Part shown: positions 4,160 through 64,000 of the stretch, one piece after another
How positions within the stretch are numbered: the stretch's first letter is position 1
Layout: every line of letters begins with the position of its first letter
Translations under genes and position numbers: made by a program
Origin: Amphiscolops sp. MND2022
Taxonomy: Eukaryota
Length of the DNA: 64,000 nucleotides
Reading direction: 5' to 3'
NCBI GenBank assembly: GCA_964187785.1
Contig: OZ076409.1
Span: 372,001 to 436,000, forward strand
Notes under the pieces: generated by a model
What the model was told of the DNA's origin: nothing
What the model saw: the letters and a program-made list of their open reading frames with translations, nothing else
The model's database searches: none

Positions 4160-4644
4160 GGGGAATTCCCAAACAGCCGAAGTACCAAACAGCAGAAAAT
4201 GAAAAATTGGTCTCAAACAGCAGAATATTTCTTTATGTTGCAATCTGATTGGCTGAAATTTGAAATCGAATTGAATTCACTAAGCTGAAAACGCGTGTCA
4301 GATTTTGTAGCAATTATTATTATAACGTAGTCAGCTAGAAATCGAATTGAATTCACTAAGCTGAAAACCCGTGTCAGATTTTGTCGGAATTATTATAACG
4401 TAGTCAGCTATGTTCACATACCCCTAGTGCCCTGAATGGAGGAGCGAAGCGACGTGCCATATGGCCATGCCTCAATGTTGCTACTTGGCGAAGGGAGCGA
4501 AGCGACCGAGCCATACAACAAATATGCAAACCTCTTCAAATAAATCAAAATCCAACATATTGGCTGTAACAGCACTAAAAGCTAGTAATTTGAATTCGGC
4601 TGTATGGGACCAAATTTTCATTTTCTGCTGTATGAATAGGCACC
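4160..4644 (+). mobile_element. Mutator-like MITE carrying the GCGAAGC cassette
   Basis: Direct repeat AGGCCGGAC at 4151-4159 and 4645-4653; imperfect TIRs with ACAGC(A/C)GAA repeats; cassette about 4395-4527. Confidence 0.72.
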
Positions 4645-4718
4645 AGGCCGGACGACCGACGGTCACTACACGTAAGCCTATACATGCAAACGTATGAATG
4701 TAAGCCTATACATTTAAA

Positions 4719-4933
4719 GGGAACCGTTCAATTGGACGACCGCTCAGTTAGACGACTGTGCAATTGATCGGTTTTGCACGCATTCCATTTTCAGTTCCGC
4801 TCACAACTTGTAATGATTACGTAATCGGAGTCTGTCGGCGAAGATGAATTAACCACTAAAATTTTAGAAACAGCTGATAGTCTTCCAATTGATCAATCGG
4901 TTAGTTGAGCGGTCGTCCAATTGAGCTAGACTC
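4719..4933. mobile_element. Mutator-like MITE
   Basis: 9-bp TSD ACATTTAAA (4710-4718, 4934-4942); TIR core TCAATTGGACGACCGCTCA / TGAGCGGTCGTCCAATTGA. Confidence 0.8.
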
Positions 4934-5652
4934 ACATTTAAAGAATATAAAATTGACTACCAACATAACTCAATTCACTGTGTTCATCCTTCTAAAATTG
5001 GAGGTGCTGTTTATTTTGTTGATGTAAGTTAAAGTTGTTTCCAATTGAATTTCAATTTGAGCCTCGGCGGTGTTATCAATTTTTTGACTGTCTGAGGCTG
5101 GTGTTCTTATAAAAAAACTGAATGTACTACCGTTCGGCAAGACAACCTACCGCCGGTTAGCATAGCAGCCGGTGGATATTGGAACGCGCGCATTAAGTCG
5201 AGTAAGCATTAAACCGACAATCAAATATTGAGTCAAAAAGCCAACGCTAATTACCTGATTTGTTGAAAAGTGGTGATTCAGAGTCACAACTATTTTCAAT
5301 ACTTATGGACAATGTATGTCTCGAAATGATCATTCTTGTCGGTTGCCTAATGGCTTGTCGGTTCAGTTGAGTGTCGGCGTAACGCATCTCTTCCGTAGAT
5401 ATTATGTAAACTGAAAATGAGGTAGAAGCGTTGAAGCTGATACTCATACAGGGGCAGCAACAATACATGTCTAGCAACCAACGTAGTTGCTACAGCAGAG
5501 CTTGAGACCGATGATAGCTAATTTACGTTGAATTGCGACCGCAACCCTTCCGCATTTTCCAAAAGTTTGTCAATCTCCATTCAGTTTAATGCACTTTCAA
5601 CTGTGATAGAAGAATGGGACCCCTAAGTGGTATTAATGCTTGGAACACTCCG

Positions 5653-6130
5653 TTTTTAGTCGGCGCTTTTCTTAAGAAAAGAGCCCGACTATTACAGTCA
5701 CTCGTTTCTTTTCTTTTTTTTATTTAAGACAGACTCGAAGCGACGAACGTTAAAATTAACGTTCAACTACTAAATACAGTACTAAACTACTGGACCGCTA
5801 AAGGCAAACGGGGAGCGCATTCATTTACTTTTTAAACGTTACCTACAAGCCCGGACGGGACTAAAGTTCCCCCCCCTTTCGATTTTTTTTCGTCACTGTG
5901 AGACTTTTTTTCGAAATTTTTCGAAGGTCCCCCCTTAGAGTTTTTTGTTATTTTGTTACAGAATGCGTGTTTATAAATCAAAAAGGGTCCCCCCTTTTAC
6001 ATTTTTCGGCACTGTGCGACATTTTCTGACAGAAATTTTTTTCGAAAATTTCAAGTTTTTTTCCAAAAAAAATGTTTTGCGCTTTTTGAGCCTTAGATAT
6101 AGCGCCGACTTGAGACGTTCCCGTCTTGTT
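5653..6130 (+). mobile_element. Helentron/DINE-1-like family A (young subfamily)
   Basis: TTTTTAGTCGGCGCTTTTCTTAAGAAAAGAGCCCGACT ... GCGCCGACTTGAGACGTTCCCGTCTTGTT; near-identical to 31748-32230 and 56490-56974. Confidence 0.85.
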
Positions 6131-7266
6131 CAGCTAATAACATAGAAACTATTGATAATAAGGTAATCTAGTTTACATTCGTGGTTGATTGAAACTTTCA
6201 GAACAAATATCGCGAAAATTAGCTATTAACAACTGTTTTATTTGGCTCGCTATCTAAGTTTTTAACTTTCGCGCAATTCAGAAAGAATTTTGATAAGGTT
6301 TTTTATTCATCTTTCAATTCATCGCTGTCAACTGATCATATTTAGAAGCTTTTAGCTTGAACACGGTCGACGAAAATCGACCATCTCCACTGAAATAATT
6401 CGGTACAGGTACTAAAGATTGGGTATAGATTCAAGACAACGGATTTGTGATTGTCTTTTTACATGTACACTTTAGGGAGCTTCCACTTTTCGAGTGTAAT
6501 GTCACCGATGGGCATCATGAACATTATCAAAAAGTTAACAATCACTAGCTTCTGCACTCAATTTAACCTTTGCAATTAGATTTCAAACATTTTACAAGTA
6601 AAAAGTATTTGCAAACTTGTCTCATACTGCCGACACGACGTCCAAAATTAGATGAAATGAATGTAAACTTTTGTTTTTATCCTTTTTTGGAAAATTTGAC
6701 ACTTTGAGAAATTAGACGCAAAACCATTAAGCGTTTTGCTCCTAATTCAATTAGCAAACAGGATTAGTTCTACTCTTCTATCACAGGACTGTAAGGTTAC
6801 ATTATTATGAAACGTATTCGAGCAACTGCGATTTCTTCATGCATTCTCGGCAGGGAAACTTTCCAGGGAGCTAATCTCAGATGAGTGTCATTGGTGGCCC
6901 AATTCAAGGAATGATGTGGTCTCCTCTACTTGACCAAGACTTGGATTGATACTGAATGATGCAATACAATACAATACAATTTAAAGTGGAGAGGGAGAGA
7001 GAGAAAGATAGAAAGTGAAGCGAAGACTAAGGGAACAACATCAACAGACAGAACTTAACTGTCAAGTGAATGAATCTTGTCAAACCTGTCACACTGCTGT
7101 CCTCTGCACAAACAAACAAACAAACAAACACTAAACCATTACACCACCAAAGGTTTTCAAAAACTAATCGGTGCTGTCATCTGACGCCAATCAAGTGACA
7201 GCAAAGAAACAGTTCTTCATAAATCTTCTCACGGAATAGAAGAAGAAGAAGTGAAAAGACTCTCAC

Positions 7267-7354
7267 CGATGGGAGTGCGCACCGACTGCTGCTTCAGCTG
7301 CTCCGCGATTGACATCCTCTTGTCCGTGAACTGCTTCAGACTGCGCTGGAACTC
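7267..7354 (-). CDS. ITSN: Intersectin exon 10 (coiled coil)
   Basis: EFQRSLKQFTDKRMSIAEQLKQQSVRTPI; tgcAG / GTGAGA. Confidence 0.85.
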
Positions 7355-8238
7355 CTGCAAACACACAACACTCACTCACTTTCCATCTTACTTGTGCTCT
7401 CCCCTCTACTTGTTGTGCAAGCATCAACAACATTCATAACTCGTATCAATAACAACGTATGATAATACAGGATCGAGCGATAAACAGCCATTCGGTTGAA
7501 CTGCAAACGTTTTAAAAAGTATGGTCTCAGAATACCGAAACAATCCGAAGGGGGACCGACCCTTTGGCTTCAACAACAATTTGTATCAATTCGAAGAACC
7601 CTAGAAAACCAAAGCCGCAGTTATATCTGGTATGCGCTAAATCTGGTATGGATTGCGTTATTAACGAAGGGGACTCCTTAGCACTTTTTACAGTTCAAAT
7701 GTAGCATGGAGGTGGCCAAAATGGACATTGCCAAAATTGAACAACTTTTGGCAGAACTATTTTTGGACAGTTCAGGTGTATGACGAAAACCCATGACTAT
7801 AGTCGACTCCTCTTTTGCAGAGAAAAGCGCCGAAGAAAACGGTTAGGACCAGAGCAGGACAAAATGGTGAAAAATTTCAGTGCGGTGGCGGGTCAAACAA
7901 AAAGTGCAACTTGGCTGCTAATGCAGACGACGTTTTTGCTTTAAAGGGTGCTCAAGAAAAGTGCATTAGAAATGGAGAAGCCGGAATTACAGAAGCATTA
8001 CGGTTAGTTAAAAGATGGCCAACGCTCCGTCCGATACAGTGAGCAACTATCCCGCCGCTTCGCCCAATTAGAGAGAGTGGTTGTTCAGTTATAACGTGCT
8101 CTAGATTTGCCTGCCCTCGGCAGTGTAAGCCTATGATGGGATAGGATGGTGAGGGTGAGTACATGGTAAGTAGGTACACGACAGGACAGGACAGGACAGG
8201 GGAGAGGGGGAGGGGAGGGGAGGTTAAGGGGGACATGC

Positions 8239-8385
8239 CTGTAGTTGTTGCTGCAGCTGTTCCAGGTGTCTCTTCCTGGCCGCGTACTTGTCGCCCCTGT
8301 CGCGCACACAGTCCTTGCTCCTCTGCTCACTGCCTCTCGTCTCGCCCAGCTGCTCGTCCAGAGAACGCTTCTTCGCCGCCAGCAC
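8239..8385 (-). CDS. ITSN: Intersectin exon 9 (coiled coil; GC donor)
   Basis: VLAAKKRSLDEQLGETRGSEQ...HLEQLQQQLQ; cgtAG acceptor; donor CAG|GCATGT. Confidence 0.82.
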
Positions 8386-8508
8386 CTACGTACACACAGT
8401 GACGTCGTCATTCACGCTACTACTACTTACAGTTGAGTTAATGGCAGCATAAAATCACCCGCGTCATTTTCTAACCAATTAGAGTGCTCCGTGACATGGC
8501 GTAATTTT

Positions 8509-9132
8509 GGGAGGCGGAAATTTCGTCGCCAGAAATTTCGTCGTCAGAAATTTCGTCGTAAGAAATTTCGTCGTATTAGCAAATCCAGAAATTTCGTCGT
8601 CGGAAATTTCGTCGTATTGATTAGAATAACAGCGTTCACCAAAAGATATCATTTGAATTATACAATTACTTAATTATAAAAATGAGATCTTAAAAACAAG
8701 TTTCATTTTGACACCAAAATTGAGTCAAAAAGTTAATTGCATTCAATCAACTCATCAAGACGCTTATTAAGCAATGGTATATTTTCAGTCCTACCGGTGG
8801 AACTACCGGTGGTAATGGAAATGTTTGCTTTAAGTGTCGAAACAACTTCGTGTTGGGGGGATAAGAAACAAGGTGTATATGGGGAGTTATTATGTCCGAA
8901 ACTTTTTCAAAACCATAACAAAAAGTAGTCAATGATAGTAATTATTGCACAATTATCGATAATTATTAAGATTAAAGAATTAGATTAAAGAAAATGCGAC
9001 GTTTTATAGAACGTAATCACCGACGACGAAATTTCCGACGACGAAATTTCTGACGACGAAATTTCCGACGACGAAATTTCTTGCGACGAAATTTCTGACG
9101 ACGAAATTTCCGACGACGAAATTTCTGGTAAT
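8509..9132. mobile_element. Mutator/Foldback-like MITE with 15-bp tandem subrepeats, nested in a hAT MITE (about 8440-9490)
   Basis: 9-bp TSD CGTAATTTT (8500-8508, 9133-9141); arms of (GAAATTTCGTCGTCA)n and its reverse complement. Confidence 0.85.
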
Positions 9133-9853
9133 CGTAATTTTACAGCGGAACTAGCAATTGGCCAAATATGATGCTTTTGAAATAACTATTCTAGAATATT
9201 CCAGAAAATCGAAGAATACAGAACACAAAAAGAACAAGAAATTGGCGAAACATGATGCTTCTGAAGCAAATTATTCTAGATTTCAAATATTGCACTTCAG
9301 ACCGCCAAAGTTTGGACCCAGAAATGATCAAACAACTGTTGTTTATAATAAAATTGCGGCAAATTGAATTGAATTCAGTAATTGCTCCGATTGTTTGTGC
9401 GCGAATTTAGCGTGATTTTCGATTCAAAATAGCGTGAATTAGTGTGTGATTAACACGTGGGCATGTTCCCGCGTGATTTTATCCTGGCGCCCTAAGTTGA
9501 GTACAAGTGCAAGACTGACCTGGATGAATTTAGGAAAAGTCGTCGAAAACAACTGGCAGGAAATACTAGGCGGAAAACCGCGGAGTCGCGGGCGGTAGAA
9601 AATAATCTCAGGCAAAGATAGTGCTAACTTTGCGATCATACCGTGTTTTGAAGTTCTAAATTATTATCAAGTACTGCATTGTAAAACTATAAAAGTGAAA
9701 CATTTCGAGCAATTATATAGCTAAAAAAGTTATTATGCGTGAAACTGAAACTTTCACGCATCAATTAACAAAAATTAATCCATAATTAGCACTGGATAAT
9801 GCCTGTAAGTAGTCTGTAATTTTCCACCAATTTTCCGCCGCATACCGACCGAC

Positions 9854-10108
9854 CTGGATGTCGCTGTCTAGCTGTGAGTTGTGGCTGCGCAGCTGCGTCA
9901 TGTGGCTCCTGGCGGCGGCGATTCTGCTCTCCAGAGTGAGGGCGATGCGTCTGTCGTGCTCGGCCTGCGCCTTGGCCTCTGCCTCCTTGCGCGCCTCCTC
10001 GAGTCGTCTCTGCTGCTCGGCCCACTGCTCAGCCCTCTTGCGCTCCTGCTCCGCCCGCTCTCTCGCCCGACGCTCCTCCTCCTGCCGCTCCTTCATCATA
10101 CGCTCCTC
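9854..10108 (-). CDS. ITSN: Intersectin exon 8 (E/R/Q-rich coiled coil)
   Basis: EERMMKERQEEERRARERAEQERKRAEQWAEQQRR...QLDSDIQ; tgcAG / GTCGGT; 255 nt, phase 0. Confidence 0.88.
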
Positions 10109-10168
10109 CTGCACAACACAACACAACAGACACTCACAACCTATACACTACTCACTACTACACATCTA

Positions 10169-10210
<42 letters not shown>
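10169..10210. repeat. (TAC)n microsatellite
   Basis: Read directly. Confidence 0.95.
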
Positions 10211-10212
<2 letters not shown>

Positions 10213-10250
10213 GGACGATTCCCGTCGTTTTAGTTGGGTGCTTTTTGAGA

Positions 10251-10831
10251 AACAAGATGGGACCATCCAAAGTTGGCGCCACGCTCAAGCCTCCAAAAAC
10301 GCTAAAATTTTTTTGAAAAATTGCTCGGGGTGACTTCAAAAAATCAGAACCTAGCACTCACAGAGCGGAACCTCTCCGAAAATAGAACTCAAAATGGTTT
10401 TCACTAACTTGAAATAACAAAGTAGACCAAAAAGTGGAACAAATTTCGGAAAGAGTCTCACGGTGCCAAAAAACACAAAATTGGGATCCTTCACACTCAA
10501 ACAAGCTGGGAACGGCCAAAGTCGGCGCTATATCTAACGCTCAAAATTGTAAAAGTGGGGGACCCTTTGGGCTTTGTGAAACTCCAGTTGGTTGCAAAAT
10601 TTCAAAAAAAATTGAAGGGGGACCCTTTGGAGACATTAAAAAAATTCGAAAAATTTTGAAATCGAGATTTTGAACAGTGTCACAGTGCCGAAAATTGTAA
10701 AAGAGGGGCCCAAAGTTGATGATATTGAACAAATAGCAAATGAACAAAAAAGTGGACCGATCGCGTTGAACTGACGAAAAAAACTAGCCACTGTAAGAGT
10801 CGGGATTTTCTTCCAAAACGCCGACTAAAAA
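10251..10831 (-). mobile_element. Helentron/DINE-1-like family A: copy 10500-10831 adjoining a partial copy from 10251
   Basis: AACAAG...AAGTCGGCGCTATATCTAA at 10500 and AGTCGGG..CGCCGACTAAAAA at 10798-10831. Confidence 0.78.
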
Positions 10832-11165
10832 CATCAGACTGTAAATATTTCTAACTGAAAGATTTCAAAAGGCAGACACTTTTGTGGTGGATTTAAAAAT
10901 GCGAAAAACGTGACCTAACCTAGTGCCGAATTCTAACAGATTCTCACGCAACTTGGCCTAGTAGTTAGGGTTCGAACTCAACTCCGCGCTGGACTAAAAA
11001 CCGTTATCCTGTTTGCAAAACTAGAGGAAACCAATGGCCCCTTTTGGTTCTTTCGAGGCTGTGCCATGATTTTCCACAAATTCCTTCAAAACAGAGGGTC
11101 ACTTGTTTTTTTTCGACACTAGTTTTCTACTCACTGCAGAACTTGAAAATTCGTGAAAAACTCAC

Positions 11166-11263
11166 TTTTTCGCGACGTTCCTGTTCCAACAACGCCTTGC
11201 GTTTCTCCTCCAACGCGGCTTCTCCTCTGTCGAAGTTCTGTCGCAGTTTGTCTTCGAACGAAA
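11166..11263 (-). CDS. ITSN: Intersectin exon 7 (start of coiled coil)
   Basis: VSFEDKLRQNFDRGEAALEEKRKALLEQERREK; ttcAG / GTGAGT. Confidence 0.92.
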
Positions 11264-16173: not shown

Positions 16174-16899
16174 TATCCTTGCAGAGGAGGTAGAGGGAAG
16201 ACGGAACGATTTTCACAAAAAACCAACCTGAGAATTTCGGCAGAAATGAAGCGCTTTGCGAGCTTATTGACACAATGCCAACAGTTGGTTAAGTATCAAT
16301 ATCAAATATCACTTCGAGATGTTTCTTAAATGACGAGCTCCATATGCCCGAATTCTCCCACTGCGACTGCTTCGCAGGTGACGCCAAAATCTGCTCAAGT
16401 GGTAATGCTGAAAAGGCTCCGAGCAGATCTGATTTTTTCTCTGGGCTCACGACAAATTGACTTTCCACAAACACAATTGCTGTTATTTGTATTTCAAGAA
16501 AACGAATTCTTATCTAGTTCTTGGACATCAAAGTTTGCAGGCATAGTCAAGAGCTGGAATGCTAACCTGAGCTGTATTGTAACATTTCAACTAAACTTGT
16601 TACTGCGACTACGGAAAGTTCTACGCACTAACTCTACGAAAAGTTCAAATATTTGCCATATTCTGTGGCCCGCCAAGTTCCTTTGAGTGTGAAATTTCCA
16701 TGTAAAGTTTCCATTATCTTATACTGATCTTCTTCATGGTCTGCAAATTGGAATTAACTGCAAATTGGAATCTTTGAAACAGGTCTGATAGGGGCATTAG
16801 CAGTCACTCCTAAGCGTTATTGAAACTTCTGCAATAATACCGACCATGTATCAAAAACAGAACAGAACAGACTTGCACCGTGACTTGTTTGCCGGCATC

Positions 16900-17930
16900 T
16901 CCTCTGGACATCAATGACCTCACCAATAACATCAATGACCTCACCAATACGGTAGAATCGCATGTTACTCTTTTCGCCGAGAACACCAACATTTTCGACC
17001 GCATGGAACAGGACGCAAGCAACGTAGAGAAAACCTTATCCATTGTGAATTCCTGGATGAAAAGTAACAAGCTGAAATGTAATCTCGATAAATCAAAAGC
17101 TGTAATCTTCGGTGAAACATCTCCAACTGCAATTTTCGACAAGTTTGGCTTGATGGTTCAACATTGTATTAAGTATTTGGGAGTGTTAATTGATGACGAT
17201 CTCAGCTTCAAGAGTCAAGTTGAAAAAATTAAGAAAAAAACTTTTGTTTTGCAACTACACAGTTCTGCGCACAAGGCCCTACCTGAAAAGATCTCAATTA
17301 CTTGTATACTACAGAACACACGTCAAAGCAATTGTACAGTATGGCGTTTTGGTGTATGGATGCACAGCTTTCAGCAACCTCCAACCGATTTTGCGTCTAC
17401 CGAAAAGAATAATTAGGAACATTTACCATCTGCCAAAATATACCAATGTCGATCAAATAATGTCGGAAAATGGATTGGAAACTGTATACGAACTTCATGT
17501 CTATGAACTCTTGAAATTTATCCTGACGTCAATGACGACAGGACACGAGAGCCAGCTATTGAACGAAATGTTACGTAAAAAAGAGGGAAAAAACTACGGA
17601 CTGAGAAAACCACCAGAGACTTTGGCCCTGATTCCAATCACAAGAACGAAAGTCGGTGAGCATTCTCTTAAATTTAGGGTCCCGACGCTTTTTAACAAGT
17701 TGGACTCCTGGGGAGTTTTTCCAGACCAGAGTAATCTAGCTGGTATCAGCGCTGACTCCGTCAAGAGCCTTGGCCACAAATTGTTTGACTGTTTTGTCAT
17801 AGGTAACGAAGACCTGGTGCGCTTCGTTTTCCGATTGCCGCCATAGTAGAGCAACGAGCGGGAAGCATCCGAACATCTCTGCTATCGACAGAGAAGAACG
17901 ACCGCGAAGCAATAAAAATAATAAAAAAGC
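16900..17930 (+). mobile_element. 5'-truncated CR1/L2-type LINE (RT C-terminus, frameshift near 17240, A-rich tail)
   Basis: INDL...LFAENT...NKLKCNLDKSK...KYLGVLIDDDLSFKSQV...IVQYGVLVYG. Confidence 0.85.
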
Positions 17931-25633: not shown

Positions 25634-25945
25634 GGGAACGTTTATTTAGGCCCGAAAATTTGTTCTCCGAAATTATTATTATAACGTAGTCAGCTATATT
25701 CACGTACCCCTAGTGCCCTAAAAGCAGCAGCAAAGCGAAGCGGAGCGACGTGCCATATGGCCATGCCTCAAGGTTGCTACTTGGCGAAGGGAGCGAAGCG
25801 ACAGAGCCATACAACAGATATGCTAACCTCTTCAAATAAATCAATTTAAATACATATTGGCTGATATATTATTATCTGACGCTAATAGTCACCAAATTAA
25901 TCGGGCCTCAAATTACACTAGCTTCGGTCCTCAAATAGGCTACCC
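25634..25945 (+). mobile_element. Mutator-like MITE carrying the GCGAAGC cassette
   Basis: Flanking (C)ATGTACAG repeat; termini GGGAACGTTTATTTAGGCCCGAA / TTCGGTCCTCAAATAGGCTACCC. Confidence 0.75.
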
Positions 25946-25950
25946 ATGTA

Positions 25951-26773
25951 CAGTACTGTGATTAAGAAAATGTCCCCGGGCGATTTTAGGCTCCATTTTC
26001 TCGAAATCGGTTGGAAATTTTGAAAAACGTCAGAAATAAAAGTTTCTCAGAATTTCATCTAGTTTACAATACTATTTTTAAAAAATTCTGAAACAAAAAT
26101 TGAGAAAGTTATAGCTGATTTTGAGCAAAATTGGGACTTTTTGCCGTTCTTTCTAAATTTTAACCGTTTTGTGTTTTTTGGCAGTTTTTTTGACAAATTT
26201 TATGCTCAATTAAATCCCACAAATCTACTGAATTGATGAATATATTTTGATTTCAAAAATGATCAATTGTTTCCGACGTATCATTCTCGAAGGGTAAAAT
26301 TTCCTCAATTTACATGAACTTCACTGAAAGCGTTGGCCAATCAAAATTGAAAGTGAGACCAAATAAACAATTTTAAATGGCCGAGAACGTCATAGGGGAC
26401 GATTTCTTAATCACAGTACTGGTGCAACTTCAATTCGTCGAACATTCAAATCGTCGAAAAATGAAAAGCTATTCAATGCGTCGAAAGAATTCCATATCAG
26501 CGATTATTATCATTTTGTTATATTTTTTGTTATATATTAGCATATTTGTTGTATGGCTCTCGGTCGCTTCTCTCCTTTCGCCAAGTAGCAACATTGAGAC
26601 ATGGCCATATGGCACGTCGCTTCGCTTCTGCATTTAAGGCACTAGGAGTATGTGAACATAGCTGATTTGAATGCTCGAATTTGATTGGCCGAAATCAATT
26701 CATTCCATTACGTCATACCATGCTCGCTAAATTAATACGTGTTCGCCGAATTGAAGAGTCCCCCACAGTACTG
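25951..26773. mobile_element. Tc1-type MITE whose right TIR is split by a Mutator-like insertion
   Basis: TA-CAGTACTGTGATTAAGAAAATGTCCCC ... GGGGACGATTTCTTAATCACAGTACT[insert]CACAGTACTG-TA. Confidence 0.78.
26421..26763 (-). mobile_element. Mutator-like MITE carrying the GCGAAGC cassette
   Basis: 9-bp TSD CACAGTACT (26412-26420, 26764-26772); TIR core CTTCAATTCGTCGAAC / GTTCGCCGAATTGAAG. Confidence 0.78.
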
Positions 26774-46625: not shown

Positions 46626-46689
46626 CTCAAACAAACACACCTCCTCACTTGCAGTCAACTGACTCGTGTACTGAAAATAGTGCATCTTG

Positions 46690-49174: not shown

Positions 49175-49380
49175 TAGAATGTTGCAACATTGAATTGAGA
49201 TGACCCATCACACGGGAGTTTGGGAGACGCTGCCGGGTAATCACACTGAGTAAGCGAGTGACTGAGTGGGGACTGACGGGAAGCGGGAATAACGTCTAAA
49301 GCCAAGTCATGCTCATTCCCTGCATTGAAACGTTGAACTTAGACGTTATTCCCGTGACACTTTGAGGTGACTGGACTGAC

Positions 49381-49805
49381 CTGTGCCAGGAGGCGTAGTA
49401 CTGGATGGCGGAGATGACGGACACGGCGACCACCAGCACCAGTCGCACGTCCACGCTGGGCGCCCTGCGTCGGTAGTAGCGGTAGTAGTGTCTGTACACC
49501 TGGTCGGGGTTGTCCAGCAAAGAGTTGTACTCGGCACGCGTGTCCTCGTCCTTCAGCGTCTCGTACGCGGTGGCCACGCGGATGAACTTGGTCTGCTGCT
49601 CGTGCTCCTTGTCGGCACTGTGCGAGTCGGGGTGCAGCTCGCGCGCCAGTCTGCGGTACGCCTTCTTGATCTCCTGCGCACTCGCGTCTCTGCCCACGCC
49701 CAACACGTCGTAGCAGTTCTCCAGGCCACAATACAGTCCCTCGATCAGCCCCAGGGCCCCCCGTGCACACACGCCCCACCAACACAAACAGTACAAGAGA
49801 TACAT
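49381..49805 (-). CDS. DNAJC25: DNAJC25 coding exon 1 (signal peptide, J domain, TM)
   Basis: MYLLYCLCWWGVCARGALGLIEGLYCGLENCYDVLGV...HPD...RLVLVVAVSVISAIQYY; GTCAGT donor. Confidence 0.93.
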
Positions 49806-50012
49806 CACATCACACACCTGAAACAACACATCACACACCCACACATCATCACAATCACAGGACATTACATGAACGTAAAGAAAACACCGAAATACGCCGC
49901 CAAGCGGAACTTTTTGCACTCCTCTCCATCTCACACTTGGTGCTGCTGCTAAACCTCGTTATTTTTGCTCTTTTTCAGATGCTTGATAATGTCAGCTGTT
50001 GTTGAAAGTGCG

Positions 50013-51785: not shown

Positions 51786-52321
51786 GGTACTCCTGACTAA
51801 GTGTGGTCCCTACAAAACTTATGCAGCCGGCCTGGAAACTCCTGATTAAGTGTGGTCCCTAGAAAAGGTTGGCATATTTGTATGGCTCGGTCGCTTCGCT
51901 CCCTTCGCCAAGTAGCAACATTGAGGCACGACCATATGGCACGTCGCTCCGCTTCTGCATTTAGGACACAACATGTATGTAAACATAGATGACGACGTTA
52001 TAATAATAATTCCGACAAAATATGCAGGGACCACACTTGGTAACGAGAAATCGCTTGTGACCACACTTAGTCAGGAGTACCCAATCTCCTTAGCAGAGAA
52101 ATCCTTTTAAATGTCTGAAAGCAAAGCGACTGTTGGCAAATCTGTTTTAGCGACTACATGTATGAGCCAAATTCACGGAAGCCTAAATGTTTGTCAAGTG
52201 AAAGTTTGCAGCATTTTTTCATCTACACCAAACTCAAGGAGATTTCTCTCATATAATAGTACAACATGGATCACATTCAGTTAGGGGAAATCGCTTGGGA
52301 CCACACTTAGTTAGGAGTACC
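51786..52321 (-). mobile_element. TIR MITE carrying the GCGAAGC cassette
   Basis: TIR GGTACTCCTGACTAAGTGTGGTC / GACCACACTTAGT(C/T)AGGAGTACC, right end present twice (about 52081 and 52321); imperfect TSD AAACTC(A/T)A. Confidence 0.72.
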
Positions 52322-52719
52322 AAACTCTATTTTGAAATAAATCTGGCTAAAATGGTCATCGGCAAACTAGATAGAAATCGAAGAAAAATTACTTTTTTAC
52401 TCTAATCTTTCGAATTTTACGACTGTTGGTGCTAAATTCGATTGTGAGATTTGCCTTGCCGTGTTTCAATATCACTTCTGCAACAACTACCATCGGTGAT
52501 ATACAAAAGCATCACTTCCAAATGCAACACAACACAGCTAGTTGTCCTCACAGATTGACGAAAAGGGCCACTTTCGAAGGTTAAATTGAAACGATCATTC
52601 TAAAGCTAACTAACGAAATAAAACAACTCATCCAAGTAATGTTACAAACATTGTAGCAGCAATTCATTCTGGCGGTAGTTCCAAATGGTGGTGAATGGAG
52701 TCAACACTTAACTGACTTG

Positions 52720-55206: not shown

Positions 55207-55334
55207 TTAACTGCTCTTCAGTTTTGTGTTGTGTGCCCCGCCGCCTGTTCTTCGCAGCTTGGACAGCAACCAATGGTAGTAGTGACTGGAGACGTCGTTT
55301 CTCTTCACTCCGGGCAGCAGAGTCACGATGCACA
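55207..55334 (-). CDS. ARL6IP1: ARL6IP1 terminal coding exon
   Basis: ttcAG then VCIVTLLPGVKRNDVSSHYYHWLLSKLRRTGGGAHNTKLKSS-TAA. Confidence 0.78.
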
Positions 55335-55399
55335 CTGAAACATTGTTTTGCACTATTTTGTGCGTGAGGTGGTACAACATACCTGGAAATTCAAGTTAG

Positions 55400-56974: not shown

Positions 56975-57149
56975 ACAACTAAAACTTCATTTTCAACGCC
57001 AATTTTTTTCAAACAAAAAACTTTTTAAGCTGCAAATTAGCGACATTTTGGGGGTGTGCTATTGGGGACGCGACGGCTACATCATATGAGTAGTTGAGAA
57101 ATCAAAGTCTGAGTGCAACGTGATCGTGTCGATAACGAAGCGGGGAATA

Positions 57150-58439
57150 CAGTACTGTGATAAAGAAATGGAACATAGGGCTGTGAAAAAGAAATGGGAC
57201 TGAATGAAAAACATTCAATTGAACAACCTCATGAAAATATTGAAACAATATTAACAAACTAGGTAAAAGATTGAAGCTTTCAATATCGGGTGAAACCTCC
57301 TCGGTTAATTTTAGTTAGAATCAACCGATTTTTAATGGACTTGAAAAGTTTTTGTACATATTCGTCAGTTGCGTAAAATACTTCAAGAGCAAAAATTTCC
57401 AAGTCCTCCAAAGTTTTTGGGTGTCTCTTCGCATCTCTGCCTTTTAGAATAGACCACAAGTTTTCGATAATATTGAGATCTGGCGAGTTTGGGGGCCAGT
57501 TTTCGAGAACGTCAACACCGTTTTCGAGAAACCATGTAGAAGTTTCCGCTGATTTATGAGCTGGAGCATTGTCTTGCTGCAAAACTTCACCCAAATACAT
57601 ATGAGGAAGCAAATGAGAGGCCAAAATGTTGGTGTAAACGCTTGAATTGACACGATTCTCCACTTTTATCAACTTTCTTTCACCTGACTCTTTGATAAAA
57701 CCCCAAAACATCATCTTTTTTCAACCAAATTTAGCATGCTGACCAACACATTTTTGCCGAATTCCACTCTTTGGGTAGGCGGACAAAATTTCTCCGTTTT
57801 GGGAACAACTCAATCATTGTTTCGTCAAAAAACCGCACATTTTTCCAAAAAAGGTCGGATTTTTGTAACATATCTTTTGCCCAAACGTATCGTTTATGTC
57901 GATTTGCTCTGGAAAGAAACGGTTTTGAAGTGCAAACTTTTGCATGTAATCCGTTTCTCAATAACAGCTTCCGGACGTAACTTGTAGAAACTTTTTGTGA
58001 TAACTCTAGGGACGCCAAAAGTTGAGTAGAATTCAGATTTGGCTGAGCCAAACACTTTCTAATAAAATAATTTCTGCTCAAACTTGTCCAATATTTGAGG
58101 TCTTCCGGTTTTCGGTCGATTTTCTAGTGTTGTTGGGTCCTTTTTGTATCGTTGTATTTTGTTATATATGGTTGTTCTAGGAATTTTCATTGATTTTGAG
58201 ATAAAATTGGCAGATTTTCCTTTGTTATAATGAGATATAACAAGAAATCGTTGTTTCACTGTGGTTTGGGGCATTTTGTTAACAAAATGATTATCAGCGT
58301 CTATTAAATCAAACAACAACAGGAGGCCATGTCAATTAAACCCTCGATGCCTTGTTTATTTAGGCAACAATAGAGGTAAAATTGGAGAGTCCCATTTCTG
58401 TATCACAGCCTTATGTTCCATTTCTTTATCACAGCACTG
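57150..58439 (-). mobile_element. Full-length Tc1/mariner DNA transposon (about 1.29 kb) with disrupted transposase
   Basis: About 37-bp TIRs CAGTACTGTGATAAAGAAATGGAACATAGGGCTGTGA / TCACAGCCTTATGTTCCATTTCTTTATCACAGCACTG; TA on both sides. Confidence 0.93.
57280..58274 (-). pseudogene. Tc1-like transposase pseudogene (DD35E), split over three frames
   Basis: HTH plus GRP motif (MPQTTVKQR...TGRPQIL), VRFFDET, MFWG and QQDNAPAH...WPPNSPDLNIIENLW; frameshifts near 58070 and 57720-57780. Confidence 0.9.
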
Positions 58440-58900
58440 TAAGTTTGATTCCAATTGTAATAGTCAAAACTACAGAGTAAACCAACAAAATACATCGCCG
58501 GAATATTGCTGAATTGTGAAGGTTTTACTTTTGAAACGTCTACCATGCCTGTAAGCATTTCTCGGTTTAAAAAGTAACGGTATGAAAGTTTCAGTCGAAG
58601 TTGAAGAAATGTCTCAAAGTTCAATCGTTTAACTACAGTTTTCACAGGCCACAATTTGCAAAAAACCCTTTGTTCAATTTCAAAAAGGAGTTTAGTGATG
58701 CTTTCAGCTTTTCGAACCTTACTTTTTGACCATTGATAAATTATGTCGAATATTTTCATACACGTAGCAGCTATAACAATTTTCTCGATTCTTCGTTGTA
58801 GCTGTGAGTTCTAATAGCTCTAAAAGTTTTACGATTGACGTTTTCCGAGAGAAACTTAAGTTAAGTACAATGTTCAATAATACCATGCCTGAAATAACAG

Positions 58901-59204
58901 GGAACGTTCACTTAGGCCCGATAATGTAATGTTATCTGAGACCCGAAAATTTGTTCATCGAAATTATTATTATAACGTAGTCAGCTATATTCACATACCC
59001 CTAGTGCAGGAGCGAAGCGAAGCGGAGCAACGTGCTATATGGCCATGCCTCAATGTTGCTACTTGGCGAAGGGAGCGAAGCGACAGAGCCATACAACAAA
59101 TATGCTAACCTCTTCAAATAAATCAAGTTAAATACATATTGGCTGATATAATATTATCTGACGCTAATAGTCACCAAATTGATCGGGCCTCAAATATGCT
59201 ACCC
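58901..59204 (+). mobile_element. Mutator-like MITE carrying the GCGAAGC cassette (same termini as 25634-25945)
   Basis: 9-bp TSD AAATAACAG (58892-58900, 59205-59213). Confidence 0.82.
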
Positions 59205-59665
59205 AAATAACAGATAATTCATTATATAGCGGATAATTAATTACTGTACGAACTTACATCGCCTTTCATCCTCGGACGATGAGTTTTGTTAGTTTAACAA
59301 AAGAATACAACTACTGAGCATATATTGTTTCGAATTCGTATTTGAATGCAGGTTCCGAATAAATAACTCGTTCGCTTAATTAATCTCAATGAAAGCGCTG
59401 TCTCGCTGCTACGAGAAATGAATTAACCAGCTTAAGACTTGGAGTAGCGCTGCCTCACTGCTAGTAGAATTGGAGACGAAAACGGGCCGACATTTAAAAT
59501 CACACTTATGACTTGAAACTTCAGCTAACTCAATATTAAGTTATCAAAAGCGGTTGAGAGATATGTTTCTTCTTTCCCATGTATGAAATATGGGCGGAAA
59601 ACAACATTTGGATCTTGTTATGCCAGTGCATGAAGAGAGAAGGAGCAGAGCAGATCTGTACTGAC

Positions 59666-59750
59666 CGAGGACATAGAAGAGCAAGAGGTTGTGAATTCTG
59701 CACCCGATCCACGCCAGAGACACGAAGAAGAAGGAGCAGTAGAAGAAATG
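59666..59750 (-). CDS. ARL6IP1: ARL6IP1 exon 5
   Basis: HFFYCSFFFVSLAWIGCRIHNLLLFYVL; ttcAG / GTCAGT. Confidence 0.87.
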
Positions 59751-60125
59751 CTGAAACATGCCAACAAACATGGTCAAATGTTGCACGAGATTCTGAAGAT
59801 CAATGGTTGTCTTAACACTTCAATGGCTGAGTGAAACAATTTTGGCGCCAAATCTGGAAGCCCCAAAATGAACTGTGAAAATTTGTGTCCTAGAACAGCC
59901 AGAGAGTGCAAACGGGTCAAACGATCAACTGAAAAAACCTCAAAAGGGGAATGACATGTGCGACTCGAATGGTTTGGAGAAACTATTCGCTAAAAGCAGA
60001 TGACAATTCTATCGCTCGCTCTCGCTTCAGTGCGAAGTTTACAATTGTTAGTGCCTTGCACATTGGAAGACGTAGCACCTATGAGCAGTTACATGAATGA
60101 AGAGCGGTGGTGGCTGGCGTCTTAC

Positions 60126-60240
60126 TTTGTTAGGTTCATTCTGTCTGTTGGTGGACAACTGTCTGTGAACATGTTGTGCAACTCGCTTCATTCGCACCAT
60201 CTTCAGGCAAATGGAGCGATACTGCTCCTCGAACTCACTT
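60126..60240 (-). CDS. ARL6IP1: ARL6IP1 exon 4
   Basis: SEFEEQYRSICLKMVRMKRVAQHVHRQLSTNRQNEPNK; ttcAG / GTAAGA. Confidence 0.85.
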
Positions 60241-60354
60241 CTGAAACACAGCACTTGAAGCAATCACGCATTTGATTTGAACGCCATTAGAGTAAAGAGG
60301 ATGAAGTTTTAGATGAATTGTAGGGTAATAAGGAAGGGGCATGTGCTGAGTTAC

Positions 60355-60480
60355 CTGTGGTCAATTCTCTGTCTGTACTTCTCCACGTAGGGACACCTGG
60401 CGAGGAAATCGACAGCTACACACACTATGCCTGCTGCAGAGGCAAGTGTGATGAGGCTAGGATCCATCAACCACACCAGG
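60355..60480 (-). CDS. ARL6IP1: ARL6IP1 exon 3
   Basis: LVWLMDPSLITLASAAGIVCVAVDFLARCPYVEKYRQRIDH; ttAG / GTAACT. Confidence 0.85.
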
Positions 60481-61674
60481 CTAAAGAGAAAAAACAATGA
60501 ACAAAGAGTCACCACTAGTCTGATGTCCATCCATCACTCAAACTCAGTTGCTTCAGCACCAAAGACACTACAGTAAAATGTATCCTTAAAATGATGGTAG
60601 GCTGCAAAAGTCAAGTGCAGGTATTTTTTGCCAATTCGTTCATAGAGCCATTCATTTTGAAACCTATTTTTTAAAATATTCAGTCATTTTTGTTCAAGGT
60701 ACTTGACTTAACAAATTAGATCATAGAAACGTTTGAAGTTATGTCATTGGACAAGACATTAAGGTACCTTTCGCGACATCGTAGATATGAACATTTGTAT
60801 CATTTTGAACTTTTTGTCATAACACAACCCTCTACATTCGCCCATCTGCGACATTCACTAAATTCCTACAGAAGTCTCCAACAATATTGAAATCAAACCA
60901 AAATTTCAGCCGTTAGAAGGCTAGACCTTCGATAAATCAACGAACATTGAAGTTTACGCCAAGGTAAGGCATCAACGCAAACGGAATTTTTGACACGAGA
61001 TTCTACCGAACTTCTTTTGATATAAAAATCTTCAACACCTTTGTTGAATCTTGTCTAAGACAAATTCAAGAACCAAGACAAACATCACGAAGCTTCAAAG
61101 GAACACTAGTACGAGCGACAAATCATAAATAAAACTATGAGGGAACTATGAAAGATCAGATCACTGATTCTAGTTAGTCGGCATTATTTCGGATTCCGGG
61201 AAAAATGTCAACGTTTGCCTCGATATTCGGCACTGAGGTTGTTAGGAGTGAAATTGACTACCGTCAACCTCCGCGTCAAAAATCATCACAACTTGCGTTC
61301 AAACTCAGCGACAAAACCTGCCTTGCGCCGATGTAGGATACGTCAGAGCTACGAATAGCTTCGCACTATTGACGAGTTCAATGCTGTGTATTAGAAGATA
61401 ATATAGATATCTGAATCTTTGACGACGGGCAACATAGTTGCAATACTTCATTTCCAGACGAACATTTACTTTGTGATTCGGTGGATTTATTTTTCAAATT
61501 AGTCCTCCAATTGCTAATAAGTGTCCAATATTTATTTTTCTTGGACAGCTATTGAGACTGTAAGGAAGGCTCTGCAGCTTCCAGCGTGTATGACACCCTA
61601 ATTTCCTCAAAGTTCGCCCCACTGCAACATGGGCAAAATTCGCCAACTAAAAAGGATGTAACTGTAGAAAATAC

Positions 61675-61808
61675 CTGAAAATGATAGTGATGACAGACAT
61701 AATGAAAACAGGATAAATCTGATTCTTCCACAGAATGACATCCTCGAATTTGCATAAAAGCACGTCGTACGGCTTGAACGCCACATAGAAGTCGAGCGAC
61801 TCTAATTC
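61675..61808 (-). CDS. ARL6IP1: ARL6IP1 exon 2
   Basis: ELESLDFYVAFKPYDVLLCKFEDVILWKNQIYPVFIMSVITIIF; ccAG / GTATTT. Confidence 0.85.
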
Positions 61809-61874
61809 CTGGAAAAAAACAATTAAGATAATCCTGACCATTTTCCAATAAATGCCAACGAAACATTATTTTAC

Positions 61875-61913
61875 CTCAATTTCTGAGTAATCAACAAGAA
61901 CAGCTTCCCCCAT
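61875..61913 (-). CDS. ARL6IP1: ARL6IP1 coding exon 1
   Basis: MGEAVLVDYSEIE; GTAAAA donor, phase 0. Confidence 0.7.
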
Positions 61914-62329
61914 TCTCCTGCCCTCAGAATTAGACTGTTTCCAACATATCTGAAAGCAAAATGTCTCCAGATTTTATTTGATTACTGATCATGAACTATT
62001 ATGTTCGAAAAGCTTTTAATTTACACATGTTTACCTTTTCACTAAATGTCTACAATCACGATTGAGAGAAACAAAAGACTCAAGTTTACACAAACACCAA
62101 GATGACATGAAGTTTTAAGAATTGATGAAAACTCAATAATGACAGTCACACAATGCACAAAATAAGGTTAGACAAGAGGCGCAGTAGCAGTTATAGTTTT
62201 CGTATAGTTGGTAAAGCTTCAAAGATTGCAGCATTTCATGTGTGAATAGGATGCAAGCTACTGACCCTACTTACAGGACATTTTTTTCCTTTATCAAATA
62301 TCATGGATCTTCGTCATCAATCAAGTGCC

Positions 62330-62620
62330 ATGTGTATCATCATGTTGCAGGGAGAAGACACACATGTTGGTTGAATGGCTTGGCGAAACTATCGATAATG
62401 TTGGATCTCACAAAGACCTCGGCCTTATCATGTCAACTATGCTAAACTGGAATGCGCATGTTCAGGAGCGGCTATTAAAAGCTAACAGAGCATTTCATTG
62501 TCTCAAGACAAATATACCATCAAAGCAAACTTCATCAAAGACTTAACTGAACATGTTTTACAGCTTGGTCAACCTTGTATTTACCTATGGCTCAGTCATA
62601 TGGATACCCAATTTGAGTCT
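62330..62620 (+). mobile_element. CR1-type LINE fragment
   Basis: HKDLGLIMSTMLNWNAHV..LLKANRAF; YSLVNLVFTYGSVIW.PN. Confidence 0.65.
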
Positions 62621-64000
62621 GATTTCTTCGAACGCATCTCTGTCGCTCACAGTTCCTAGAACACAGGCCGCATGCCAATCTGAAGAGCCATTGAAATCCG
62701 TTGCTTCAAAAAACCTTCAGCTCGTTGATCGTCGTGCGAACGACAGAGCATTTTACAGAGACGCGTGATGAAAATTTCGCTGCACTCGCCTAAAGAACCC
62801 TGTACTTCCAAGGCCACTGGCTGAAAAATGTATCCATTGTCTATTAATTCGCGATACTTCTCAATTTTACGCGCTTGAGCCTCAGTGGCGGTGGTTCCCG
62901 GGGGGTGGGCGGAAATAGGTCGAAGGAACGGGATCGAGAATCAGAGTTATACCAGATCGACATACCAAATTTTTGAATGGGATCGAAACAACTCGGATCG
63001 AAATTTTTATAACGTAGTCAGATATGTTCACATACTCCTAGTGCCCTGAATGCAGGAGCGAAGCGACGTGCCATATGGCCATGCCTCAAGGTTGCTACTT
63101 GGCGAAGGGAGCGAAGCGACCGAGCCATACAACAAAGGGTGGCTGTAAATAGGTCGAATTTTTCTGGTCGAAAGGACTGAGGTCGAACCTTTTGATCGAA
63201 TTACAGGGATCGAATGGAATGCGGTCGAATTTCATCGTATTTGTTGTATGGCTCGGTCGCTTCGCTCCCTTCGCCAAGTAGCAACATTGAGGCATGGCCA
63301 TATGGCACGTCGCTCCGCTTCGCTTCGCTCCTGCATTCAGGGCACTAGGGGTATGTGAACATATCTGACTACGTTATAAAAATTTCGATCCGAGTTGTTT
63401 CGATCCCGTTCAAAAATTTGGTATTGTCGACCTGAGGACTAACTCTGATTTTCGATCCCGTTCCTTCGACCTATTTCCGCCCACCCTACAACAAATACGA
63501 TAAAATTCGACCGCATCCCATTCGATCCCTGCAATTCGATCAAAAGGTGCGACCTCTGTCCTTTCGACCAGAAAAATTCGACCTATTTACAGCCACCCGT
63601 TCCCGGGTCGCATAAAGAGCCTCGATTCAGGCCAATGGGAGCAAGAGCATCGACAACCGTGACATCCCACACCAGCTGTTTACCCATTTCCCAAGGAATC
63701 ATGGTAACACCGTCTGGGCGTTTGCCATCAGTTCGGTACAGTCCACGCGGTTCGAGCATTGAAGGCAAGTCGAGAGATCCGAGCGTCTGCTTTATGAGGG
63801 AATTGAGAGTAGCATGACGTGAGAAGCGACCAGCACTCTTGGTGCAAGAAGGACCGTGTAAACTGTCCCGTTCAACTCTTTTGCGACAGTGGCACGTATG
63901 CGCAACGCAGATGTTGGCACCGAGACGCAAACCAATTGAAATACGAAGTTGCTGATCATCAAGTATCAGGCCTAGGTTCTGCAAGGAATGACGTTCAACC
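62621..64000 (-). mobile_element. CRE-clade (restriction-like endonuclease) non-LTR retrotransposon, 3' part
   Basis: LRLG..IC...CHC..H..SC zinc knuckle, SRH..LN, EPRGL.R.DGKRPDGVT.IPW..GKQLVWDVT. After removing the MITE the frame continues ATEAQARKIEKY...FQPVALEVQGSLG...LKQRISMALQ. Confidence 0.85.
62903..63598 (+). mobile_element. Mutator-like MITE with an inverted copy of the same family (63137-63486) inside it
   Basis: Outer TSD GTTCCCGGG (62894-62902, 63599-63607); inner TSD TACAACAAA (63128-63136, 63487-63495); TIRs GGGTGG..AAATAGGTCGAA. Confidence 0.9.

Follow-up and report, generated by a model that had tools for sequence, protein, structure and literature searches.

A non-coding stretch of about 130–140 bp, referred to here as the cassette, recurs inside Mutator-type MITEs; it makes up the interior of these elements, whose population is very large, and is not an element of its own. 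The cassette is probably passenger filler that other MULE families have repeatedly picked up from older MITEs, with amplification in trans following capture; MULE families, most likely, keep copying one another's interiors. Some of the shared sequence belongs natively to the T1 MULE family, and the process works like a Pack-MULE capture, which is not to say that the elements are Pack-MULEs.

The cassette and its carriers in the window

In the window, the whole 64-kb stretch of DNA that was analysed, a 26-nt cassette anchor matches seven times at up to three mismatches, with none expected according to 100 shuffles. An earlier note on this DNA had described seven cassette copies, and their positions agree with those found here to within a few bases. 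The carrier elements, with their target-site duplications (TSDs), and the cassettes are as follows.

4160–4644, plus strand: T1-type MITE, 485 bp; TSD AGGCCGGAC at 4151–4159 and 4645–4653
4395–4524, plus strand: cassette copy 1, 130 bp, in the T1 carrier
25634–25944, plus strand: first T2-type MITE, 311 bp; TSD CATGTACAG
25681–25820, plus strand: cassette copy 2, in the first T2 carrier
26421–26763, minus strand: T3-type MITE, 343 bp; TSD CACAGTACT
26543–26665, minus strand: cassette copy 3, in the T3 carrier
51786–52081, minus strand: T4-type MITE, 296 bp; near-perfect 25-nt TIRs
51878–52001, minus strand: cassette copy 4, in the T4 carrier; the most diverged, 88.7%
58901–59204, plus strand: second T2-type MITE, 304 bp; TSD AAATAACAG
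58972–59102, plus strand: cassette copy 5, in the second T2 carrier
62903–63598, plus strand: outer T5-type MITE; TSD GTTCCCGGG; interrupted by the nested T5
63009–63136, plus strand: cassette copy 6, in the outer T5 carrier
63137–63486, minus strand: inner T5-type MITE, 350 bp; TSD TACAACAAA
63238–63377, minus strand: cassette copy 7, in the inner T5 carrier

The other window cassettes are 88.7–98.5% identical to copy 1 (110/124 to 128/130), and pairwise identity between end types is 80–93%; the shared segment of T3 begins about 9 nt later than that of the other types. The central palindrome attributed to the cassette, GCCATATGGC, is intact in five of the seven copies (at 4456–4465 in copy 1), and the GCGAAGC motif attributed to it occurs one to three times in every copy. 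Copy 1 also contains an internal direct repeat of about 21 nt (4441–4461 and 4494–4515), absent from the earlier note. An Rfam search with the cassette returned no match at E values up to 10, and its folding is nothing unusual beside shuffled sequence (z = +1.0 as DNA, −0.07 and +0.67 as RNA); on these two results, identification as a structured non-coding RNA was rejected.

The window carriers are 296–485 bp long, or 696 bp when the nested copy is included, and the sampled carrier elements measure 300–540 bp; no carrier in the window overlaps an ORF of at least 150 aa. A TSD of about 9 bp had been claimed for every carrier, and perfect 9-bp TSDs do flank six of the seven window elements, the exception being the T4 copy, whose immediate flanks (AAAACTCAA versus CAATCTCCT) form no TSD. 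This copy adjoins a solo T4 end fragment, and the site looks like a rearrangement. Perfect 9-bp TSDs at type-consistent ends were also found in 18 non-redundant sampled copies, and nested insertions with their own TSDs show that insertion events took place in the past.

The terminal 50 nt of the five window end types are 44–64% identical, compared with 45–54% in shuffled controls; judged by this similarity, which is no better than that of shuffled sequence, the five types are unrelated, as had been proposed, and do not align as a single diverged family. The end motifs listed previously are correct, but the ends are not clean TIRs: the inverted repeats are imperfect, and next to them come subterminal repeats specific to the family. 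The termini start with GG, and the 9-bp TSDs have no sequence in common. By analogy, these features (TSDs, GG termini and subterminal repeats) place the T2, T3, T4 and T5 carriers among the Mutator-like (MULE) MITEs, and T1 arms match six MULE loci (L033, L038–L041 and L062).

Copies across the genome and autonomous partners

The phenomenon proved larger than first described. The central 39-mer of the cassette, at up to two mismatches, has 8,133 matches in the 1.07 Gb genome, with none for the reversed control; the right 39-mer occurs 8,404 times, and the left 39-mer, which spans two common polymorphisms, 5,525 times. Because the left, central and right counts are similar, the cassette seems to travel mostly as a whole. 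The 57 classified copies, drawn from the window, from the 30 loci that scored highest and from 20 loci taken in genomic order, fall into at least 17 end types, and the 20 genomic-order loci by themselves into 11; the samples were selected for similarity to the cassette or for a single arm motif, the position-ordered ones all from contig C1. Ends specific to the cassette were found in none of the 57; the copies lie within carrier elements and lack termini of their own.

In a genome profile search with PF10551, 150 of 305 candidates scored above the cut-off. Twenty of 30 MULE loci have at least 16 13-mers in common with the arms of a single MITE type (T1, T8, T10 or T11), and no autonomous partner for the T2, T3, T4 or T5 arms was found among the 30. 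Together with the 9-bp TSDs, the arms common to these four types and to transposase-bearing elements bear out the Mutator-like nature originally ascribed to the carriers. The partners are compact autonomous elements of 1.9–2.5 kb with a single ORF; all four ORFs contain the MULE domain, and three have a FLYWCH match, two of them above the Pfam cut-off. Their transposases are only 23.9–31.8% identical pairwise, which, with end similarity at the shuffled level, agrees with the initial description of a conserved core with exchanged ends. The T8 autonomous element is complete (L065, 4001–5898, TSD ATAGATTAC, 443-aa ORF), and the T8 MITE arms are 97% and 92% identical to its two arms. As for the suggestion that autonomous MULEs be checked for the cassette, the partner elements do not carry it: BLAST matches occur in two of the 30 MULE loci, and both are separate complete MITEs, one of them a T11 MITE inserted into a T11 MULE (TSD ATCCTGTCG).

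The limits of the shared segment vary by family and form nested subsets, and the cassette edges have neither a flanking duplication nor fixed termini. The stretch ACTGGCTGTAACA...CACTAAAAGC belongs to the native sequence of the T1 MULE (L062) and lies within the shared piece of T4-long, T8, T9, T10 and, partly, T2; additional T1 interior is carried by T4-long and T14. At the right junction of T8, the sole junction compared with an autonomous parent, there is a microhomology of about 6 nt (TAACAA). Two hybrids join the ends of different families, one with a T4 left end and a T5 right end (L010/L011), which has no TSD, and the other with a T5 left end and a T2 right end (s9/s10); in both, the inter-family junction lies inside the cassette. 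A second, different cassette, present in 6,942 copies, lies between T5, T18 and T19 ends, at one locus (L087) in T5 ends with a TSD matching at 8 of 9 positions. That this sequence too is common to several end types points to a general swapping process, and not to the first cassette alone. Between the 5′ parts of the two cassettes there is a weak alignment (score 24; shuffles give 18.6 ± 2.3, and 9 of 200 score as well).

Probable filler capture and its alternatives

On this reading, each MITE family is built from the two ends that a compact autonomous MULE has, and the cassette fills the position of the transposase ORF; the GG-type terminus and subterminal repeats are presumed to be the binding sites of the family's own FLYWCH-MULE transposase. 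The cassette probably spread among MULE families at the DNA level, with pieces of older cassette MITEs copied between the ends of other families; a T1-type MITE would be the donor for many families, and a T3/T6/T7-type MITE the donor for a second group. The likely mechanism is template switching or microhomology-mediated joining during excision-gap repair, or else nested insertion with later internal deletion. Each chimera would then be amplified in trans by the transposase of its own family, with no need for a function of the cassette. As the cassette is now very abundant, it also provides homology through which MITEs that are otherwise unrelated can recombine.

Several observations sit less comfortably with captured filler: for a purely neutral process, 17 or more capturing MULE lineages is a large number, the cassette mostly moves as a whole, T5 cassettes have fewer private substitutions than T5 arms, GCGAAGC is present in both cassettes, and their 5′ parts are weakly alignable. 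A less probable alternative is that the cassette is a selected cis-acting module, such that MULE ends gaining it transpose or persist better and out-amplify other derivatives in every family. Possible modes are an optimal spacer length or flexibility, a host-factor site, an aid to end pairing, or evasion of silencing. One interior in so many end types, mostly as a whole unit, argues for selection, as does the recurrence of GCGAAGC, and the authors of the CMITE study proposed the same idea for their conserved interior (PMC2872659). The cassette is joined to 35 of the first 40 T5 left arms and to at least 112 of 146 T8 left arms, but such a high within-family share is expected anyway for a family with a single founder. 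Among 24 T5 copies selected by their arms, the cassette has a lower rate of private substitutions than the arms (0.96% versus 1.56%, p = 0.023), and the first 14 copies taken separately gave 1.5% versus 3.2% (p = 5e-4); the overall divergence from consensus in the 24 (1.71% versus 2.31%), however, does not differ significantly (Fisher p = 0.084), the cassette being less diverged in 14 copies and not in 10. Also against a module, T5 ends have mobilised a different cassette, with a TSD (L087), the orientation relative to the transposase gene is antisense in T8 and sense in T11, the fold tests gave no stable structure, and the boundaries vary, with T1-native flanks hitch-hiking. An extension of this proposal, which we regard as doubtful, makes the cassette, perhaps with cassette 2 as a possible distant relative, a family-independent cis-acting "engine" of Mutator-type transposition, which would improve any MULE end pair via a host factor or a trait common to FLYWCH-MULE transposases and would have been selected repeatedly after capture in at least 17 lineages.

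It is improbable that the similarity is maintained by gene conversion or by ectopic recombination within the thousands of copies, and not by recent transfers. All four combinations of the two common polymorphisms occur, three of them within T8, the hybrids have their junctions inside the cassette, and divergence is slightly lower in the cassette than in the T5 arms, all as such concerted evolution would predict. Conversion, however, cannot account for the first acquisition of the cassette by unrelated families, all sampled T5 copies retain their own two diagnostic variants, and the boundaries stay family-specific. That the cassette works for the host, whether as a scattered regulatory element or as a source of small RNA, is very unlikely: copy number is high, conservation is good and the cassette is richer in G+C than its surroundings, but Rfam match and fold signal are both absent, the cassette is always tied to transposon ends, and truncation, interruption by nested elements and recombination affect copies freely (at 11 of the first 40 T5 sites the cassette is truncated, interrupted or rearranged). 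The least probable reading, an independent small mobile element or, as the earlier note had suggested, a passenger homing into MITEs, would fit the location of the cassette inside other elements and the one nested insertion exactly at a cassette 3′ edge (that of the outer T5 copy), but it is contradicted by left and right limits that vary by family without fixed termini or edge duplications, by T1 MULE-native sequence dragged along in the shared piece, by cassette-specific ends in 0 of 57 copies, and by the insert at that edge being a complete T5 MITE with its own TSD.

The origin of MITE interiors and the capture of foreign DNA by Mutator elements are old open questions, for which usually few junctions have been studied, and this genome is a natural experiment on MITE birth. 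A single traceable sequence has dozens of independent capture junctions here; its donors (T1-type MITEs) can be identified, and the autonomous parents of the recipients survive in the genome with long ORFs, so that the direction, the mechanism and any amplification advantage of capture are directly measurable. About 8,000 dispersed stretches of homology link otherwise unrelated transposon families, and the hybrids suggest that these families are already recombining because of the shared interior. Should the interior indeed enhance transposition, vectors built on MULEs would gain a general design element.

Comparison with known systems

In a study of a Tc1/mariner-type Stowaway MITE, the interior can reportedly raise transposition frequency within one family, a precedent for the cis-module reading, whereas the cassette is an interior common to many families. 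Stowaway-like MITEs of Aedes are described as arising by microhomology-mediated internal deletion of an autonomous parent (PMC3814204). The TAACAA junction of T8 resembles such joining at short homologies; simple deletion leaves parental sequence only, whereas here the interior is replaced by a piece of another family's MITE.

Non-autonomous derivatives of Muta1 in Aedes aegypti have MULE ends with foreign interiors, the captured pieces being diverse and about 20% of them host-gene fragments (PMC5225508). Capture is a recognised habit of the MULE superfamily. Like Pack-MULEs and Muta1 derivatives, the cassette carriers have MULE ends with subterminal repeats, TSDs of 8–9 bp, and foreign DNA in place of the transposase gene; the difference is that one captured piece, itself from another MITE, recurs across many MULE families in thousands of copies. 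Membership of the Pack-MULEs was rejected: a host-gene source was not found, and the non-T1 remainder of the cassette has no Rfam match and was not found elsewhere.

The CMITEs of Acropora corals have an interior that is better conserved between families than the terminal repeats (Wang et al. 2010, PMC2872659). According to the account given there, they are piggyBac-type elements of about 100 bp with TTAA duplications, CCYT termini and a 75-nt interior, in six TIR families that still have terminal motifs in common and an estimated 1,600 or so copies; nested and derived elements are present, the origin of the interior was unknown, and both a cis role and transduplication were weighed (PMC2872659). 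The likeness lies in cassettes that are 80–93% identical between window types with ends at 44–64%. The differences are that the cassette carriers are Mutator-type elements of 300–540 bp with 9-bp TSDs, that their at least 17 end types are similar only at the shuffled level, with partner transposases 24–32% identical and 8,133 copies, and that a donor family for the cassette can be demonstrated. With GG termini and 9-bp TSDs without common sequence, and not TTAA and CCYT, the carriers are not CMITEs themselves; coral CMITEs and Pack-MULE-like derivatives are nonetheless the closest precedents for the cassette.

Cassette copies and their carriers in the window

The cassette, a non-coding interior of about 130–140 bp found in MITEs of the Mutator-like element (MULE) type, is present seven times in the window. 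A 26-nt anchor taken from it has seven matches in the 64 kb at up to three mismatches, where none is expected by chance, and local alignment gives the copies an identity of 88.7–98.5% to the first. Both approaches place all seven copies where the earlier note, made from the sequence alone, had located them.

Cassette copies, as placed by local alignment, and carrier MITEs in the window (T1–T5, our labels for types of MITE end)
4395–4524, plus strand: cassette copy
25681–25820, plus strand: cassette copy
26543–26665, minus strand: cassette copy
51878–52001, minus strand: cassette copy
58972–59102, plus strand: cassette copy
63009–63136, plus strand: cassette copy
63238–63377, minus strand: cassette copy
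4160–4644: T1 MITE, carrying one cassette
25634–25944: T2 MITE, carrying one cassette
26421–26763: T3 MITE, carrying one cassette
51786–52081: T4 MITE, carrying one cassette
58901–59204: T2 MITE, carrying one cassette
62903–63598: outer T5 MITE
63137–63486: second T5 MITE, nested at the 3' edge of the outer cassette

Each copy had also been described as lying in an element with a target-site duplication (TSD) of roughly 9 bp. All seven do lie inside a short element and six of the seven carriers have perfect 9-bp TSDs; the exception is the T4 carrier, which has no TSD and adjoins a solo T4 end fragment. The end types in the window all start with GG, each has its own short subterminal repeat, and the termini are imperfect, making a strict TIR-seeded finder unsuited to them. 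Their terminal 50 nt are 44–64% identical, against 45–54% for shuffled sequences, whereas cassettes compared between the same end types are 80–93% identical; because the ends are no more alike than shuffles while the cassettes stay similar, the observation of one interior within different terminus types is confirmed.

Several features adjoin these elements. Beside the T4 MITE, the segment at 52082–52325 has an inverted look, and some 190 bp from the MITE there is a target sequence that looks intact, AAACTCAAGGAGATT, followed by the solo end fragment of 55 nt, a layout that suggests a rearrangement tied to aberrant transposition. The neighbouring T2 and T3 MITEs are separated by another short TIR element (25942–26420, ends CAGTACTGTGATTAAGAAA...), of a type also found near T16 copies at two sampled loci (L078 and L079); the TSDs of the two MITEs overlap its terminal bases, so both MITEs inserted right at its ends. 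A retroelement-like coding remnant (63600–63756) stands directly beside the T5 pair. Among window ORFs of at least 150 aa, Pfam found no transposase; a reverse-transcriptase fragment (RVT_1, 16838–17416, plus strand) scored 26.4 bits, below the Pfam cut-off, and an ORF at 49296–49958 (minus strand) has a DnaJ domain (79.6 bits).

Genome-wide abundance, end types and autonomous partners

In the 1.07-Gb assembly, a central cassette 39-mer occurs 8,133 times at up to two mismatches (reversed control, 0), a right-part 39-mer 8,404 times and a left-part 39-mer, which spans two common polymorphisms, 5,525 times; given these similar counts, the cassette mostly occurs whole. An exact cassette 32-mer had no match in the metagenome_contigs or viral_contigs collections. 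Fifty-nine copies were examined: the 30 best BLAST loci, 20 loci on contig C1, taken in order of position from the exact matches to the 39-mer, and the window copies; all samples are small, and the position-ordered ones come from one contig. By their arms, 57 of the 59 fall into 17 end types, with one hybrid in addition, and 11 types appear among the 20 genomic-order loci alone. T3, T6 and T7 are mutually similar, the remaining types have no common motif, and no cassette-specific ends were found among the copies examined. A TSD finder that accepts only elements starting with GG, ending in CC and showing an exact repeat of 9 nt, with an estimated chance rate of about 0.02 per locus, recovered elements in 11 of the 27 top-scoring loci, and a looser one identified 18 non-redundant copies whose type-consistent ends have perfect TSDs, along with others with one mismatch; these tallies are lower bounds, since several end types do not end in CC.

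The Pfam MULE domain (PF10551) gave 150 scored matches over its cut-off among 305 candidates, many in open frames of 400–500 codons. Of 30 MULE loci fetched, 20 have arms in common with one MITE type, namely T1, T8, T10 or T11; no autonomous partner of T2, T3, T4 or T5 was found among the 30. The T8 autonomous element (L065, 4001–5898) is 1.9 kb long, with the TSD ATAGATTAC and a single 443-aa ORF; T8 MITE arms are 97% (left) and 92% (right) identical to it, and in the MITE the cassette occupies the place of the ORF region. The partner ORFs of the four types (387–472 aa) all match the MULE domain and three match a FLYWCH zinc finger, two of them above the curated cut-off. Their transposases are only 23.9–31.8% identical in pairwise comparison, so the MULE families are old and distinct. 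The MULE identity of the carriers is well supported.

Autonomous MULEs do not themselves carry the cassette, a point on which the earlier note had asked for a check: it lies within 2 of the 30 loci, each time as a separate complete MITE. One of these, a cassette-bearing T11 MITE (L061 3874–4410; G000:C2:75.40 Mb), is nested with a perfect TSD, ATCCTGTCG, in an autonomous T11 MULE, at the 3' end of the transposase frame, and is a case of within-family self-targeting.

Two further features of the MULE loci were observed. At L062–L064 (G000:C10:484000-509000), T1-type units form a head-to-tail tandem array that repeats about every 3.5 kb; each holds a 472-aa MULE ORF and a 208-aa ORF that belongs to no Pfam family, the ends abut without TSDs, and one unit is broken by a 950-codon ORF. 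The inner arms of T1, T12, T3 and T8 (e.g. window 4245–4262) share motifs resembling a CCAAT box (CTGATTGGCTGA / CCAATCAG) with the presumed promoter side of autonomous T8; these motifs may be transposase promoters retained by the MITEs.

Boundaries, donor and exchange of interiors

How far the shared interior extends depends on the family, and the extents form nested sets. To the right of the 130-nt core, one version of an extension continues for up to about 80 nt, at differing lengths, in T1, T2, T4, T8, T9, T10 and T13; T3, T6, T7, T15 and T16 have a second version in common; and in T5, T12 and T14 the shared sequence ends at the core. From ACTGGCTGTAACA...CACTAAAAGC onward to the terminus, the first version is native T1 autonomous-type sequence (L062 and the T1 MITE right arm are 95.7% identical over 94 nt). 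T1-native sequence stands beside the cassette in T4-long, T8, T9, T10 and partly T2, which indicates that the interior of these families came from a T1-type MITE. T4-long also retains a T1 subterminal motif, and T14 extra T1 left-interior sequence. At the T8 right junction, the sole one compared with an autonomous parent, TAACAA is common to parent and donor at the breakpoint. One earlier proposal, a passenger that homes into MITEs, is at odds with the cassette's family-dependent boundaries, its T1-native flanks and its lack of ends of its own; judged from these alignments, the cassette is not a discrete module but appears to have been captured, and its donor can be traced. A short GCGAA/GCGGA repeat tract, probably slippage-prone, lies between the palindrome and the first GCGAAGC (e.g. 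window 25726–25750); copies of a single end family, like those of different families, may have no extra nucleotides here, about 10, or in some cases more.

Exchange is also recorded in hybrid elements. One, with a T4 left end and a T5 right end around the cassette, has no TSD and is present in two copies 23 kb apart (L010/L011, C9:32.26–32.29 Mb); another, with a T5 left and a T2 right end, has two copies 3 kb apart (C1:6935722-6939181). In both the junction falls within the cassette, and the paired copies have identical flanks and are local segmental duplications. All four combinations of the two common cassette polymorphisms are present, three of them within T8, and in the T4/T5 hybrid the first of the two sites agrees with T4 and the second with T5. 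MITE-in-MITE nesting is frequent. DNA-level transfer of the cassette between families is well supported.

A second, different interior, cassette 2, is absent from the window and is represented genome-wide by 6,942 occurrences of a 29-mer (control, 0). It lies within at least three kinds of MULE-type ends.

Examples of cassette 2 in different ends (all on contig C1)
L087, 127–430: in T5 ends, TSD matching at 8 of 9 positions
L086 (outer element, TSD TTTGCAGAG) and L098: in ends with AGATCTAA-type repeats
L092: in ends with GACGTTTCGGCA repeats

As this interior also spans end families, interior sharing is a trait of the genome's MULE population and not of one sequence, and interior exchange between end families is ongoing and general. 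GCGAAGC occurs in both cassettes, in cassette 2 within a perfect 6-bp-stem hairpin motif, GATCGC-GAA-GCGATC. The two align weakly over about 60 nt, a score equalled in 9 of 200 shuffles, so that a relationship between them may be taken as a lead, not a result.

Passenger filler or selected module

In the best-supported account, which we consider probable, the cassette is passenger filler conferring no advantage on its carriers, the absence of advantage being the weaker half of the claim. The cassette would first have become the interior of an older MITE; other MULE families would then, time and again, have placed copies of it inside their own ends, by template switching or microhomology joining in gap repair or by nesting followed by deletion, and each family's transposase would have amplified its own product.

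The rival reading, in which the cassette is a selected cis module, is unlikely on our assessment, and several comparisons bear on it. A T5 left-arm 20-mer occurs 2,051 times, with a cassette 12-mer 120–150 nt downstream in 1,079, and T8 left-arm 21-mers number 146, with a cassette 10-mer following in 112. The first 40 T5 sites on C1 hold cassette 1 in 35 cases (24 full-length; 11 truncated, interrupted or rearranged) and a cassette-2 type interior in five (three independent). Such high shares are expected from one founder per family and are therefore no proof of selection. Across the 24 full-length T5 copies, which were selected by their arms, divergence from the consensus is 2.31% in the arms (93/4,034) and 1.71% in the cassette (59/3,443), with a Fisher p of 0.084 in a small sample of non-independent bases; private changes amount to 1.56% versus 0.96% (p=0.023), and copy by copy the cassette is less diverged in 14 and more diverged in 10. 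An earlier subset of 14 copies gave 3.2% for the arms and 1.5% for the cassette (p=5e-4), the signal thus becoming weaker with more copies. The cassette does not have the same orientation with respect to the transposase gene in T8 as in T11, and as DNA or RNA, on both strands, it folds no better than shuffles. An Rfam scan of 4100–4700 at E values up to 10 found no match on the cassette and lent no support to a 5S-rRNA origin; the sole match was a chance-level snoR1 (13.9 bits, E=5.6) at 4292–4327, outside the cassette.

In the limited library searched, no report of a single interior common to many MULE families was found. The closest precedent for a conserved interior with different ends is provided by the coral CMITEs, piggyBac-type elements of about 100 bp with TTAA duplications, in six TIR families that share terminal motifs (PMC2872659). 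Non-autonomous MULEs with foreign interiors are represented by Pack-MULEs and Muta1 derivatives, whose interiors are diverse (PMC5225508), unlike the one recurrent cassette described here.
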